NCBI GenBank assembly: GCA_963977445.1
Contig: CAXBPH010000127.1
Coordinates: 1 to 18,945 of the forward strand
DNA length: 18,945 nt
Origin: an uncultured bacterium
GTDB taxonomy: Bacteria; Hydrogenedentota; Hydrogenedentia; Hydrogenedentales; JAEUWI01
Reading direction: 5' to 3'
Shown in pieces: positions 1,769-5,898 of the stretch (positions are counted from its first letter, which is position 1; each line of letters starts with the position of its first letter). A program made the position numbers and the translations under genes. The notes below the pieces were generated by a model. That model had not been told where the DNA came from and ran no database searches. It worked only from the letters and a program-made list of their open reading frames with translations.

Positions 1769-1787
1769 TTCCCGTTGAACTTCCTTG

Positions 1788-1815
1788 AGGGGCACCCGTT
1801 TCGGGTGCCCCTTTT
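1788..1815 (+). terminator. Intrinsic terminator after pagL
   Basis: Perfect 11-bp stem AGGGGCACCCG/CGGGTGCCCCT with a TTT loop, followed by a T run, about 20 nt after the stop codon. Confidence 0.85.
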
Positions 1816-1894: not shown

Positions 1895-1973
1895 TAGCTA
1901 TATGTAGGGGTTGGGGCTGGGGTGCCATAAGCCATCTAGTGGTTATTTTTCAAAATGACACAATATTTAGTTG
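1895..1973. promoter_or_regulatory. Three phased NrdR-box-like operators
   Basis: TAGCTATATGTAGGGG (1895-1910), ATAAGCCATCTAGTGG (1927-1942, half-site) and ACACAATATTTAGTTG (1958-1973, 13/16 match to acaCwAtATaTwGtgt). Start-to-start spacing is 32 and 31 bp. Confidence 0.7.
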
Positions 1974-1999
1974 CAACATTTCAGGTTCTCTGTTAACAT
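1971..1999 (+). promoter_or_regulatory. Sigma70-type promoter of ftsK
   Basis: TTGCAA (1971-1976), a 17-bp spacer ending in TGn, then TAACAT (1994-1999). An AGGA RBS at 2028-2031 precedes GTG 2039. Confidence 0.65.
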
Positions 2000-2038: not shown

Positions 2039-4699
2039 GTGCGCTCGACTTCAAACCTATCTGCTGAACGTAAGTCTGAGCTGGTTGGGCTTGTGATAGG
2101 TGCGCTTACCGTAGTGCTCTTCCTCGCCTTGGTCACCGATGGCTACGACGTGCAGGTACAATCTACCCGGCCCTACGACGATATGCTGGGTGTTCCCAAC
2201 CTATTGAGGGCTCCCGGAGCCTTCGTGGCCGGGGTATTTGCCCTCTTACTCGGTGATGCGCGCCATGTGACCTACTCCCTGTCCTTTGTGTGGTCACTCA
2301 TGCTGATCAGCCACCGACCCGTCGATCACCTGCTGCCCCGGTTGCTTGGTGCGGGCGTCTTGCTCGTGGCGGTTGCGTCTTTTCTGCAGCTCAATTTTGT
2401 AACCGGTAGTTCCAATGCCGATGCGGGCGGGGCCATCGGGCTTTTTGTTGTTTCCCTCTTCACACGGAACCATTTCGGCATTGTTGGTGCCAACATTGTG
2501 GTCTGCTCCATGGCCCTGGTTGGCTTGCTGCTGGCAGCGGAATACCTCTTTATTTATCTGTTTCTCGTGGTTCAGCGGGGCGGCGCGCGCTTGTTACAAC
2601 GTACTTCCGGCGCTTCATTGCGGCGGGCAACGGCCGGTGCTGGCGTGCTGGCAGGTCAAGACAAGGCCCCCCGGACGCCCCGACAAGAGCCCTTGCCCCT
2701 GGATGCGGAAGCGATTCCTGAGCCTATTGTGGCCGAAGATCCGGAAGAAATGGTCTACCCCGCCCTCGATATGGCTGCGGATCGCCTTTCCCGGATTACT
2801 ATTCGGGGTTCCGGTGCGCCGACGGAAGAGGAAGAGCTCCCCTTCGACGCGGTGCCCGACATTGGGCATGAGCTGGACGACGACACGATAGAAGATGAGG
2901 CCCTTGCCATTGACTTGGACCTGCCCGAGGCACAGGAGCCTTACGACGATGGCTTCGATGTGCCGGAAGACCCCTTCGAAGCAATAGAGCCTTATGTCGA
3001 TGACGCGCCCGCGCTGAATATTACCCAAGCCGCGTTGGAGCCGGTGGATGACGAGCTTGTAGAAGCCGAATCCGACTGGGATGCGCCAGTGCCTGCGGCA
3101 GAACCAGAACCTGAGCCTGCGTCGGCCCTTGCCCCCGCCCCGGCTGCCAAGCCCCAGGCGAAACCCCGCCGCCCCCGCCGCAAAATCGTGGCCCATGAGG
3201 AAATTCCTCATGATTACAAGTACCCGAAGCACTACAGCCGGCCTTCTATGGACATCCTCGATGAGGCAGAAGAGAAAGTCGTCACCGATCTTTCGGAGCA
3301 ATTGCGAGCGACGAGTATTCTGCTGGAAGAGACTCTGCAAACCTTTGGCATTGAAGCGCGGGTTACCGATGTTACCCGGGGCCCGACCATTACCCGTTAC
3401 GAGCTGGAGCCTGCACCCGGTATAAAGGTAGCGCGTTTTCAGGCCCTTTCCGACGATATTGCCCTGGCCCTGAAGGCCCACCGCATCCGCGTGGAAGCCC
3501 CCATTCCCGGCAAAGGGCGTGTAGGTATCGAAGCGCCGAACGCCGAGCGTGATCCTGTACTGATTCGCGAGCTCATTGAATCCCGTGTGTTCAAGCGGGG
3601 CAAAGGCAAGCTGAACCTTGTGCTCGGTAAAGATATTGCCGGTGAAGTTAAGATTGCCGATCTGGCAACCATGCCTCACCTGTTGGTGGCCGGTGCCACC
3701 GGCGCGGGTAAGACCGTCTGCGTGAAGGCCCTACTGGCGAGTTTGCTTTTCCAGCACACGCCCGACGACTTGCAGCTGATTTTGATTGACCCGAAGATGG
3801 TGGAACTGTCGATTTTCAATGATATCCCCCATTTGATTACGCCCGTGGTGATTGACCCGAAGAAGGCGTCCGTTTCCCTCACATGGCTTATCAATGAGAT
3901 GGAAGAGCGCTATCGCCTCTTTGCTGACCTGCGGGTACGTAATATTGAGGTCTACAATCACAGCGTCGAGAACGGTGAAATCGAGATGGAAGGGGACGAG
4001 GACGATCCCGAATCCCATTCCTTGAGTGTGATTCGCCGTCTGCCCTATATTGTCTGCGTGATCGACGAATTGGCCGATCTGATGATGCTGGCCCGCTCCG
4101 AAGTGGAAGATTCCATTGCCCGACTGGCCCAATTGGCTCGTGCCGTGGGTATTCATATGATAATCGCGACCCAGCGGCCGTCGGTCGACGTGTTGACCGG
4201 TGTTATCAAAGCAAATTTTCCATCTCGTATATCATTTCAGGTGTCATCTCGGGTAGACTCCAGGTGTATTCTTGACGAAATTGGTGCTGAACGGCTTATC
4301 GGTATGGGTGATATGCTCTATTTGCCCGCTGGTCAGTCGAAGCCCACCCGTATTCAGGGTGCCTTTGTAAGTGATGATGAGATGAATTCTCTCATTATGC
4401 ACTTAAAAAGACAGGCCCCGCCGCAGTACAAAGATGAAATAGAAAATTGGGGGAAAAGTAGAGATAAATTAGAAGAAATTGCCGACGAACCCGATGAGTT
4501 ATTCGACGACGCCGTACACATTGTTATGGAAACTGGCCAGGCCTCAATTTCCATGGTGCAAAGGCGTTTGCGAGTAGGGTACACTAGGGCGGCGCGGTTG
4601 ATTGATATGATGGAGCGAAAGGGAATTGTGGGGCCCCATACGGGGAGTAAAGCACGGGAGATCCTGGTCGACGCCGTGCAGGTAGAAGAAAGCTCATGA
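2039..4699 (+). CDS. ftsK: DNA translocase FtsK/SpoIIIE
   Basis: N-terminal multi-TM domain and acidic/Pro-rich linker. Motor motifs are PHLLVAGATGAGKT (Walker A), IDPKMVEL, IDELADLMM (Walker B) and ATQRPSVDV. The gamma domain reads ASISMVQRRLRVGYTRAARLID. Confidence 0.97.
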   Translation: MRSTSNLSAERKSELVGLVIGALTVVLFLALVTDGYDVQVQSTRPYDDMLGVPNLLRAPGAFVAGVFALLLGDARHVTYSLSFVWSLMLISHRPVDHLLPRLLGAGVLLVAVASFLQLNFVTGSSNADAGGAIGLFVVSLFTRNHFGIVGANIVVCSMALVGLLLAAEYLFIYLFLVVQRGGARLLQRTSGASLRRATAGAGVLAGQDKAPRTPRQEPLPLDAEAIPEPIVAEDPEEMVYPALDMAADRLSRITIRGSGAPTEEEELPFDAVPDIGHELDDDTIEDEALAIDLDLPEAQEPYDDGFDVPEDPFEAIEPYVDDAPALNITQAALEPVDDELVEAESDWDAPVPAAEPEPEPASALAPAPAAKPQAKPRRPRRKIVAHEEIPHDYKYPKHYSRPSMDILDEAEEKVVTDLSEQLRATSILLEETLQTFGIEARVTDVTRGPTITRYELEPAPGIKVARFQALSDDIALALKAHRIRVEAPIPGKGRVGIEAPNAERDPVLIRELIESRVFKRGKGKLNLVLGKDIAGEVKIADLATMPHLLVAGATGAGKTVCVKALLASLLFQHTPDDLQLILIDPKMVELSIFNDIPHLITPVVIDPKKASVSLTWLINEMEERYRLFADLRVRNIEVYNHSVENGEIEMEGDEDDPESHSLSVIRRLPYIVCVIDELADLMMLARSEVEDSIARLAQLARAVGIHMIIATQRPSVDVLTGVIKANFPSRISFQVSSRVDSRCILDEIGAERLIGMGDMLYLPAGQSKPTRIQGAFVSDDEMNSLIMHLKRQAPPQYKDEIENWGKSRDKLEEIADEPDELFDDAVHIVMETGQASISMVQRRLRVGYTRAARLIDMMERKGIVGPHTGSKAREILVDAVQVEESS

Positions 4700-5163
4700 A
4701 CCAATTCGAATTTCCGGGACATAGATTGACCGAGCAGCGCGAAGCGCTGGCCATGTCAATGGTGGATGCGTATCACGAAACCCACGTTCCCATCGAGTAT
4801 CTTACTCGTCTGGAGAATGGTGAGTTGGATGAATTGCCCGCCACGGCCTATACCGTAGGATTTCTTACCACCTACTGTAATGTGCTGCAGCTGCCTGCCG
4901 AGCCCTTCATTGAAGCGTTGCGTACCTGCCGATCCACACGCCCTGAAGTGAACTTTCTGTCCCGTGGTGGCTTGTCCGACCTGAGTAATCCCTACCCACT
5001 CTGGGTTCGCGATGCCATGACCTGGGCCGCCATCTGTGCGGTTTTGTTGCTGGGCTGGGTCTCCTATTCCATTGTGGTCCGTCCCTTCGCGGAATCGACT
5101 CCCGACCGTGTAAACGCCGGATCCATCGAAATCGCGCCCCCTGCCCGGTTTGACGTGGAATAA
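4696..5163 (+). CDS. rodZ: RodZ-like HTH membrane protein, short form
   Basis: ATGA overlap with ftsK. The HTH_25-like segment G-xx-L-xxx-RE...YLTRLENGELDELPATAYTVGFLTTYCNVLQL is followed by one TM helix, in the typical position after ftsK. Confidence 0.8.
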   Translation: MNQFEFPGHRLTEQREALAMSMVDAYHETHVPIEYLTRLENGELDELPATAYTVGFLTTYCNVLQLPAEPFIEALRTCRSTRPEVNFLSRGGLSDLSNPYPLWVRDAMTWAAICAVLLLGWVSYSIVVRPFAESTPDRVNAGSIEIAPPARFDVE

Positions 5164-5265: not shown

Positions 5266-5274
5266 TGCTACAAT
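5266..5274 (+). promoter_or_regulatory. Extended -10 promoter just upstream of pgsA
   Basis: TGcTACAAT ends 9 nt before ATG 5284, and there is no Shine-Dalgarno in between. Confidence 0.55.
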
Positions 5275-5283
5275 GGCGGCATT

Positions 5284-5898
5284 ATGAACCTACCCAATAA
5301 ACTCACCGTGGCACGCTGCATCCTGACGGGATTCTTCGTGTTCTTTCTTTCCTTCCAGGATGTCTATTGCTATGCCTTGGGCTATATTGTCTTCGTCACA
5401 GCGGCCATCACCGACTATTACGACGGCAAAATAGCGCGCGAACGCAATCTGGTCACCAATTTCGGGAAACTGCTCGACCCGGTGGCCGATAAGGTGCTGG
5501 TCGTTGCTGCCTTTGTCATGCTACTCGGAATCCCCGCCATGGCGGTCCCCGCGTGGAGTGTGGTCCTGATTCTGGCCCGGGAATTTCTCGTTACCGGCGC
5601 GCGGGCGCTGGGTGCGGCCCAGGGCCTCGTTATACCAGCGAATAAATGGGGTAAACGGAAGACCGTCTATCAATTGGTCTACGCCTGCACCTTTCTTTTT
5701 ATGGTGGTCGTTATTCAGGCCCTGGAACAATATCCGGCGTTGGGAGATAGTATTCCTGGCGACGTTGCGATGTATACCACCGGAATCGGGCTGGCCTCTC
5801 GCTGGTCCATTGTTCTCGTCTCCCTCTATACCGTCTATTCGGGCATACAGTTTGCCCGGCTCAACTGGAAATCCCTCGGGCTTGACGCCGTTTCATGA
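5284..5898 (+). CDS. pgsA: CDP-diacylglycerol--glycerol-3-phosphate 3-phosphatidyltransferase
   Basis: Canonical start MNLPNKLTVAR (ATG 5284 rather than GTG 5206) and the CDP-alcohol phosphotransferase motif TDYYDGKIAR...TNFGKLLDPVADK. Confidence 0.95.
   Translation: MNLPNKLTVARCILTGFFVFFLSFQDVYCYALGYIVFVTAAITDYYDGKIARERNLVTNFGKLLDPVADKVLVVAAFVMLLGIPAMAVPAWSVVLILAREFLVTGARALGAAQGLVIPANKWGKRKTVYQLVYACTFLFMVVVIQALEQYPALGDSIPGDVAMYTTGIGLASRWSIVLVSLYTVYSGIQFARLNWKSLGLDAVS

Follow-up and report, generated by a model that had tools for sequence, protein, structure and literature searches.

NrdR-type boxes upstream of ftsK and other segregation, division and cell-wall genes in uncultured Hydrogenedentota: a candidate nucleotide-responsive regulon

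The ftsK promoter and its box array

The window analysed here is an 18,945-nucleotide stretch from an uncultured member of the Hydrogenedentota, whose genome we refer to as G000. It carries ftsK (2039..4699, plus strand), the proposed target of this work, which encodes a DNA translocase of 886 amino acids with four Pfam FtsK domains; its three named relatives all belong to Ca. Hydrogenedentota. Upstream, a hairpin resembling an intrinsic terminator (1787..1813, plus strand; 12 pairs, 9 of them G-C, with a T tail) follows a pagL-like gene and would thereby shield ftsK from upstream transcription. The ftsK stop codon is overlapped by a gene with an HTH_25 domain (4696..5163, plus strand). These two genes abut or overlap in all eight relatives checked and are probably co-transcribed. 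We call the second gene rodZ-like, a putative name taken from its domain and context; NCBIfam gave no match to it at 1e-10. Further 3′ lie pgsA, alr and a YacP-like gene, in that order. An extended -10 promoter belonging to pgsA itself is suggested by TG-C-TACAAT at 5266-5274, ten bases 5′ of the ATG at 5284, in which case the ftsK transcript may need to span only ftsK and the rodZ-like gene. No Rfam family matched within the window.

Ahead of ftsK lie three 16-bp NrdR-type boxes, annotated without a strand. Box 1 (1895..1910; TAGCTATATGTAGGGG) matches the NrdR consensus at 10/16 positions and the core at 9/10, and scores 9.1 bits under the matrix described below. Its C4, A6, T11 and G13 are all present, and 7 of the 8 positions between C4 and G13 are A or T. 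The middle box (1927..1942; ATAAGCCATCTAGTGG; 9/16, core 5/10, 4.3 bits) is degenerate: only its right half-site is recognizable, its left half has A4 and C6 instead of C4 and A6, and the stretch between positions 4 and 13 is 50% AT. Box 3 (1958..1973; ACACAATATTTAGTTG) is the strongest, with 13/16 consensus matches, 9/10 core matches and 15.5 bits. The box starts are 32 and 31 bp apart, leaving linkers of 16 and 15 bp, within the integer-turn range of NrdR operators (15-17 bp).

The final three bases of box 3 are also the opening three of a predicted -35 hexamer, TTGCAA (1971..1976, plus strand), so that the array overlaps the predicted core promoter, as NrdR operators do. A 17-bp spacer separates this hexamer from a predicted extended -10 element, TG-T-TAACAT (1991..1999, plus strand; TG at 1991-1992, TAACAT at 1994-1999), and transcription would be expected to start near 2006. 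Across 20 aligned genomes, the TTG of the -35 and the T, G, T, A and final T of the extended -10 are invariant. A consensus promoter scanner did not call the ftsK promoter because it has only 8/12 matches, under the cut-off. Recomputing these features reproduced what an earlier note had read from the letters: three 16-mers with these starts and spacings, the core count of the first, the half-site in the middle, the consensus match of the third and its position over the -35, and a TTGCAA-17-TAACAT promoter with an extended TG. The array precedes ftsK and the overlapping HTH_25 gene, the target that the note had named as ftsK-rodZ, in the place where a classical NrdR regulon has a reductase operon or nrdR.

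Published work, cited here and below from the portions of each source available to us, describes an NrdR tetramer loaded with dATP and ATP that binds two phased boxes, kinks the DNA and represses (PMC9110341, PMC13584703). The form loaded with ATP only does not bind DNA, C4 and G13 are critical, an A6-to-C change is harmful, 63% AT is a lower limit and two boxes are required (PMC13584703). When each box is held to C4, A6, T11, G13 and at least 63% AT between C4 and G13, boxes 1 and 3 comply and box 2 does not. The earlier note had seen the half-site but missed that it breaches these experimentally derived rules. For the same reason (no C4, a C6 and 50% AT in the middle box), the published two-box regular expression does not accept the window's adjacent boxes; it passes only the combination of boxes 1 and 3 at 63 bp, a spacing outside what the available part of PMC13584703 covers. 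Affinity at this ftsK promoter is therefore uncertain. The expression also fails the nrdA and nrdR promoters of G000 itself, indicating that its criteria are too stringent for this lineage. Among the best 30 matches of each search, it passes 11/28 upstream regions of ftsK, 5/29 of nrdR and 0/27 of clpS, and at nrdA/nrdD 0/19 at the short spacing and 2/19 at the long one. Within the genus of the window, the right half of the middle box is kept in 9/9 aligned genomes, and 8/8 relatives have a counterpart of box 1 at the same distance, scoring 8.9-18.5 bits.

Genome-wide rarity and conservation of the boxes

Boxes were scored with a palindromic matrix built from 78 boxes upstream of nrdR, nrdA and nrdD together with ten published boxes, with ftsK excluded. 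The training boxes include those of G000's own nrdR and nrdA, and 12 of the 20 nrdA/nrdD labels, as well as that of G000, were confirmed with NCBIfam. A second matrix was made from the ten published boxes alone (E. coli and Streptomyces). We counted a pair when two boxes of at least 1 bit each summed to at least 14 bits, a threshold set after the data were seen. Conservation counts are drawn from the best 30 matches per search, with upstream regions shorter than 200 bp dropped and G000 excluded, leaving 26-29 relatives; upstream lengths were 300-700 bp, the longest being given to the negative controls. Because the relatives are not independent, these counts are no probabilities.

The 16-letter consensus, matched at 13/16 or better by 31 sites in the 7.1-Mb genome, gave scant spacing signal genome-wide, making a matrix necessary. 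Under the matrix, which is blind to ftsK, 20 sites in the whole genome reach 15.5 bits, and among triples with 31-33 bp spacing a single locus outscores that of the window (28.9 bits). Triples of this spacing reach 22 bits at 4 loci, and each of nine control spacings yields 0-2. Similarly, pairs of at least 18 bits in G000 number 14 at 31 bp, 2 at 32 bp and 5 at 33 bp; every other spacing from 18 to 59 bp has 0-4.

Upstream of ftsK orthologues, a pair at 31-33 bp is present in 20/28 relatives among the best 30 matches (16/28 with the published-only matrix). The training sets, also among the best 30 matches, give 23/29 for nrdR and 14/19 for nrdA/nrdD (22/29 and 11/19 with the published-only matrix). 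The median best pair is 17.9 bits at ftsK, near the 21.5 bits of nrdA/nrdD and far above the 2.8 bits of clpS. Both expectations of the earlier note, that the boxes would score like those of the nrd genes and that boxes and spacing would be conserved ahead of ftsK, were thus upheld. The C4/G13 bases are complete, at four, in 12 of the 20 ftsK pairs, and the other eight keep three; no qualifying pair was found in 8/28 relatives among the best 30 matches. Other spacing bins at ftsK hold 0-6/28, except the 28-30 bp bin (10/28), probably because the motif has a two-base self-similarity and the same boxes are registered in shifted form. In eight further, more distant ftsK genomes, two best pairs satisfied the pair rule, and G018, G026 and G039 of this set have single ftsK boxes of 17.6-21.3 bits.

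In an alignment of 20 of the 30 ftsK regions, the conserved blocks are the box over the -35, which most relatives keep, and the extended -10. Four relatives (G010, G013, G014 and G022) have lost the -35 box to decay and kept the promoter, with the pair lying one step upstream. A reverse search with box 3 and the promoter found 84 metagenome stretches, of which 80 were fetched and 24 precede ftsK, some of these 24 being near-duplicates of one another or of genomes already counted. A second box of at least 3 bits at 31-33 bp occurs in 13/24 of these ftsK loci versus 0/56 of the other loci, and in 0/24 of the same ftsK loci at two control spacings.

Such conservation could in principle reflect a sigma-70 promoter with a UP element of AT-rich phased tracts, the likeness to NrdR boxes having arisen by chance. 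The three bases that box 3 shares with the -35 would fit this explanation, as would the AT-richness of intergenic DNA and the chance pairs that do occur in G000. However, such pairs are found at only about 20 loci in 7.1 Mb; the lexA, recA and dnaA upstream regions of G000 have none, scoring -3.8, 1.8 and -0.2, respectively; and box and -35 are separable in the four relatives named above. We regard the explanation as scarcely credible and largely refuted, and the placement of boxes at other promoters, described below, adds to the case against it.

The degeneracy of the middle box raises another possibility, namely that NrdR binding is weak or non-canonical and that the ftsK promoter is fine-tuned, bent or even activated through one strong box whose partner is decaying, with no dATP switch. 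Several relatives do retain only the box over the -35, the middle box violates the binding rules, and activation through one box has been described for P. aeruginosa topA (PMC4409342), although that precedent has since been questioned and, in the available text of the later reports, was not reproduced (PMC12051234, bioRxiv 10.1101/2025.03.28.645925). A decaying partner sits poorly with the second box found in phase in 20/28 relatives among the best 30 matches, and with the joint shift of both boxes where the one over the -35 is lost. Degeneracy is just as pronounced in the pairs at the nrdA, nrdD and nrdR genes of this lineage, and the box overlaps the -35. We therefore consider weak or non-canonical binding unlikely, and favor repression by NrdR through paired boxes.

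NrdR, the reductase genes and further candidate targets

All genomes searched encode nrdR (41/41, from 25/25 genera), including that of the window, where the earlier note's proposal called for it; most relatives have one copy per genome. The protein of G000 (C125:6729-7178) can be aligned with solved NrdR structures. Of the residues named in the available part of PMC9110341, it retains base-reading D15 and R17, backbone-contacting R12, R26-29 and R37, and nucleotide-binding K53, E59, K65, F127, V130 and Y131 (own numbering), and so has both the Zn-ribbon recognition residues and those of the ATP cone.

The lineage's own reductase promoters carry the motif, both at nrdA/nrdD, where the 14/19 given above belong to the training set, and at thyX-nrdJ. 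In G000, class I nrdAB (contig C269, assigned with NCBIfam) is preceded by a cobalamin riboswitch as well as an NrdR-type pair (L065:28-315). The class II, B12-dependent reductase gene nrdJ lies behind thyX on contig C77, and the pair upstream of thyX-nrdJ, which is outside the training set, scores 28.8 bits. An NrdD-like gene (L004; G000:C110:15566-17827, minus strand) has an ATP-cone-type start, falls below the NrdD family cut-offs and is conserved in relatives. With both matrices, an NrdR pair was found in 0/9 relatives at this gene, which may be a non-reductase paralogue.

Beyond the reductases, and among the best 30 matches of each search, pairs at 31-33 bp lie upstream of gyrB (20/29; 18/29 with the published-only matrix), of a gene for an Amidase_3 protein (20/28; 19/28) and of a gene for an MltD-like LysM transglycosylase (20/28; 18/28). 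At mraZ, again among the best 30 matches and with the discovery genome counted, a box of at least 12 bits is present in 24/27 relatives and a pair at three or four turns in 19/27; without that genome, a pair at 31-33 bp occurs in 13/26. Some NrdRs tolerate four-turn spacing (PMC12051234). The best box of G000 (21.5 bits) belongs to murC, which has its own promoter here; among the best 30 matches, 29/29 murC regions have a box of at least 12 bits and 17/29 have a partner at 40-42 bp. A strict pair pattern searched in five relatives gave 23 sites versus 7 for the reversed pattern, and the 23 include nrdR, thyX, a class II-like reductase, ftsK, the amidase region and the mraZ promoter. The earlier note had tied division and segregation to nucleotide status through ftsK; the sequences support that link, but the larger set of gyrB, mraZ, murC, amidase and MltD-like genes had been missed.

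The boxes sit differently in each predicted promoter: over the -35 at ftsK, just upstream of the promoter at gyrB, in the spacer at the MltD-like gene and over the start at murC. This variation argues that they are not a promoter element. They lie within reach of RNA polymerase at all members but mraZ, whose boxes are some tens of bases 5′ of the likely -35.

Several other loci carry similar motifs. A pair at murB (G000:C43:5865-5911, L104) also occurs in 4/28 relatives among the best 30 matches, all from the window's genus, and murB is a possible genus-level member and recent gain to the regulon. The best triple of G000 (C186:3951-4030, L100) is flanked by a divergent radical-SAM gene and a gene for a hexapeptide-repeat transferase; the matching locus has a strict pair in G008 (L390) and in G010 (L421), and judging by these motifs it is likely a further regulon member. 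In G008, a strict pair stands directly 5′ of a transposase gene (PF14706, which we take to be IS4-type; L386:1500-1545, G008:C1:3185977). The same 42 letters recur at 4417852, 5409909 and 6351176, with the gene seen at one copy, which suggests an insertion sequence whose transposase promoter may read NrdR. Clusters of strong boxes with 41-44 bp spacing precede unannotated genes at G000:C226:5234-5400 and C400:3804-3970, and further candidate pair sites seen in G000 lie near CheX-like, HlyIII-family, kinase, HDOD, flgK, TonB and other genes. Between mraZ and an rsmH-like gene of G010, a small ORF (L378:555-950) has, by eye, the look of an anti-sigma-factor antagonist.

Motif matches alone can mislead. 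A 28.6-bit pair within coding sequence near clpS, evidently a chance occurrence, passed every motif test in G000; among the best 30 matches, it is conserved in 2/27 relatives and, with the published-only matrix, in 0/27, and clpS was rejected as a target. We likewise rejected dnaB, whose G000 match is inside the gene (pair in 0/28 among the best 30 matches), and a gene combining MshEN and DnaA-type ATPase domains (3/28 among the best 30 matches, not conserved). The latter encodes a fusion protein of 793 amino acids (L273:187-2565, G000:C28), and long homologues of its N-terminal part occur throughout the order.

The assignment of the boxes to NrdR is predicted from sequence, and AT-rich palindromes are common to unrelated regulators. 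Both points would be compatible with another, lineage-specific regulator that recognizes an NrdR-like motif and runs the division genes, with NrdR running the nrd genes only. Yet the boxes at the two classes of gene have the same motif, the same C4/G13 and the same 31-33 bp phasing; a matrix made from E. coli and Streptomyces boxes recovers the division-gene sites; and most relatives encode a single nrdR. LexA in particular does not provide the explanation. A candidate LexA box, [CG]TGAA-N6-TTCA[GC], lies upstream of lexA and recA (G000:C175:2978 and C47:4818) and resembles the Myxococcus box; as read from these two promoters, it has 23 exact sites in the genome. The palindrome TGAA-N6-TTCA is absent from the window even with one mismatch allowed, and its exact form occurs in 0/30 ftsK upstream regions. 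A separate regulator is thus very unlikely in our judgement, and we retain NrdR as the candidate for both classes of gene.

A proposed nucleotide switch and its relation to known systems

The motifs, their spacing and conservation, the overlap with a predicted promoter and an intact NrdR are observed in these genomes. We consider it probable that the conserved array, with boxes three helical turns apart, is an NrdR operator, and that NrdR represses ftsK and the rodZ-like gene at high dATP as part of a lineage-wide regulon for segregation, division and the cell wall. When dATP is high, an NrdR tetramer on boxes 2 and 3 would block RNA polymerase at the ftsK -35. A second register (boxes 1 and 2), made possible by box 1, would compensate for the weak middle box. 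The poor binding reported for the third box at S. pneumoniae nrdHEF (PMC12051234) warns against assuming that box 1 is used. As replication draws down dNTPs, dATP among them, NrdR would be released and the ftsK promoter freed, with ftsK co-expressed with nrdAB, thyX-nrdJ, gyrB, the mraZ division cluster, murC, the amidase and the MltD-like enzyme. The outcome would be a switch between replicating and idle states. On this scheme the division gene products would appear while replication is in progress, earlier than they are required, which suits such a switch more than a finely tuned cell-cycle timer. NrdR binding, repression, nucleotide dependence at these sites and co-regulation are what we infer from the sequences.

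The recurrence of one motif at ftsK, gyrase, division-cluster and cell-wall promoters suggests that NrdR likely ties segregation and division to nucleotide supply, beyond nucleotide synthesis. A broader proposal, which we hold with only moderate confidence, is that NrdR in Hydrogenedentota is a nucleotide-sensing cell-cycle regulator. A single dATP/ATP switch would then act over the genes for making dNTPs (nrdAB, nrdD, thyX-nrdJ), for supercoiling (gyrB), for segregation (ftsK), for the division and wall cluster (mraZ), for wall precursors (murC) and for septal hydrolases (the amidase and the MltD-like gene), such that division genes are transcribed only while replication consumes dNTPs. The coupling of division to replication varies by lineage and is unknown for most uncultured phyla, and NrdR is usually treated as a reductase-specific repressor. 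If the proposal is true, conserved phased boxes at six segregation, division and wall promoters across an order would let NrdR connect dNTP pools directly to the division programme. The proposal also suggests that regulon searches overlook targets in other phyla when they consider reductase promoters alone. No culture of the organism is needed to test the claim, because NrdR proteins also recognize boxes from other organisms (PMC13584703) and E. coli reporter assays for NrdR are available (PMC12051234).

As far as its available text goes, a 2025 preprint finds paired boxes and derepression at reductase operons only in E. coli and P. aeruginosa, with single boxes at topA and dnaA, and proposes that paired-box repression is limited to reductases (bioRxiv 10.1101/2025.03.28.645925). 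In the titles and abstract openings that our literature search covered, ftsK or division genes did not appear as NrdR targets; sources beyond these, among them subscription papers, RegPrecise and the supplement of Rodionov and Gelfand 2005, may bear on novelty. What we describe is likely an established kind of operator at targets of a new class, conserved across an order.

The closest known systems are the reductase operators of E. coli (nrdAB, nrdHIEF and nrdDG) and S. coelicolor (nrdAB and nrdRJ), which likewise consist of 16-bp partial palindromes with C4 and G13 (PMC9110341, PMC12051234, PMC13584703). They share with the sites described here linkers of 15-16 bp, overlap with the core promoter and an NrdR with the same recognition residues. 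Arrays of three boxes, as at ftsK, have precedents at S. pneumoniae nrdHEF and at T. maritima nrdJ (PMC12051234, PMC13584703). Here, in contrast, the predicted target is ftsK, the middle box is a half-site, and candidate operators of this type are also conserved at gyrB, mraZ, murC and two peptidoglycan hydrolase genes. DNA-handling targets outside nucleotide synthesis have been proposed before, at Pseudomonas topA and Shewanella dnaA (Rodionov and Gelfand 2005, via PMC4409342 and bioRxiv 10.1101/2025.03.28.645925). Those sites are single boxes, whereas the boxes here are paired, phased, promoter-linked and spread across division and wall genes.

Other bacteria reach ftsK by different means. 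In E. coli, LexA controls ftsK/dinH within the SOS response, and there too a repressor site lies over the ftsK promoter and links division to the state of the DNA. The genome studied here, by contrast, has its candidate LexA palindrome ahead of lexA and recA and not ahead of ftsK. In Caulobacter, CtrA acts as one regulator over ftsK and other division and segregation genes. The WhiA/WhiB regulons of Streptomyces similarly place ftsK and other division and segregation genes under one regulator (PMC3781837). These systems use other proteins and other motifs, and none of their regulators is a direct nucleotide sensor, as NrdR would be.
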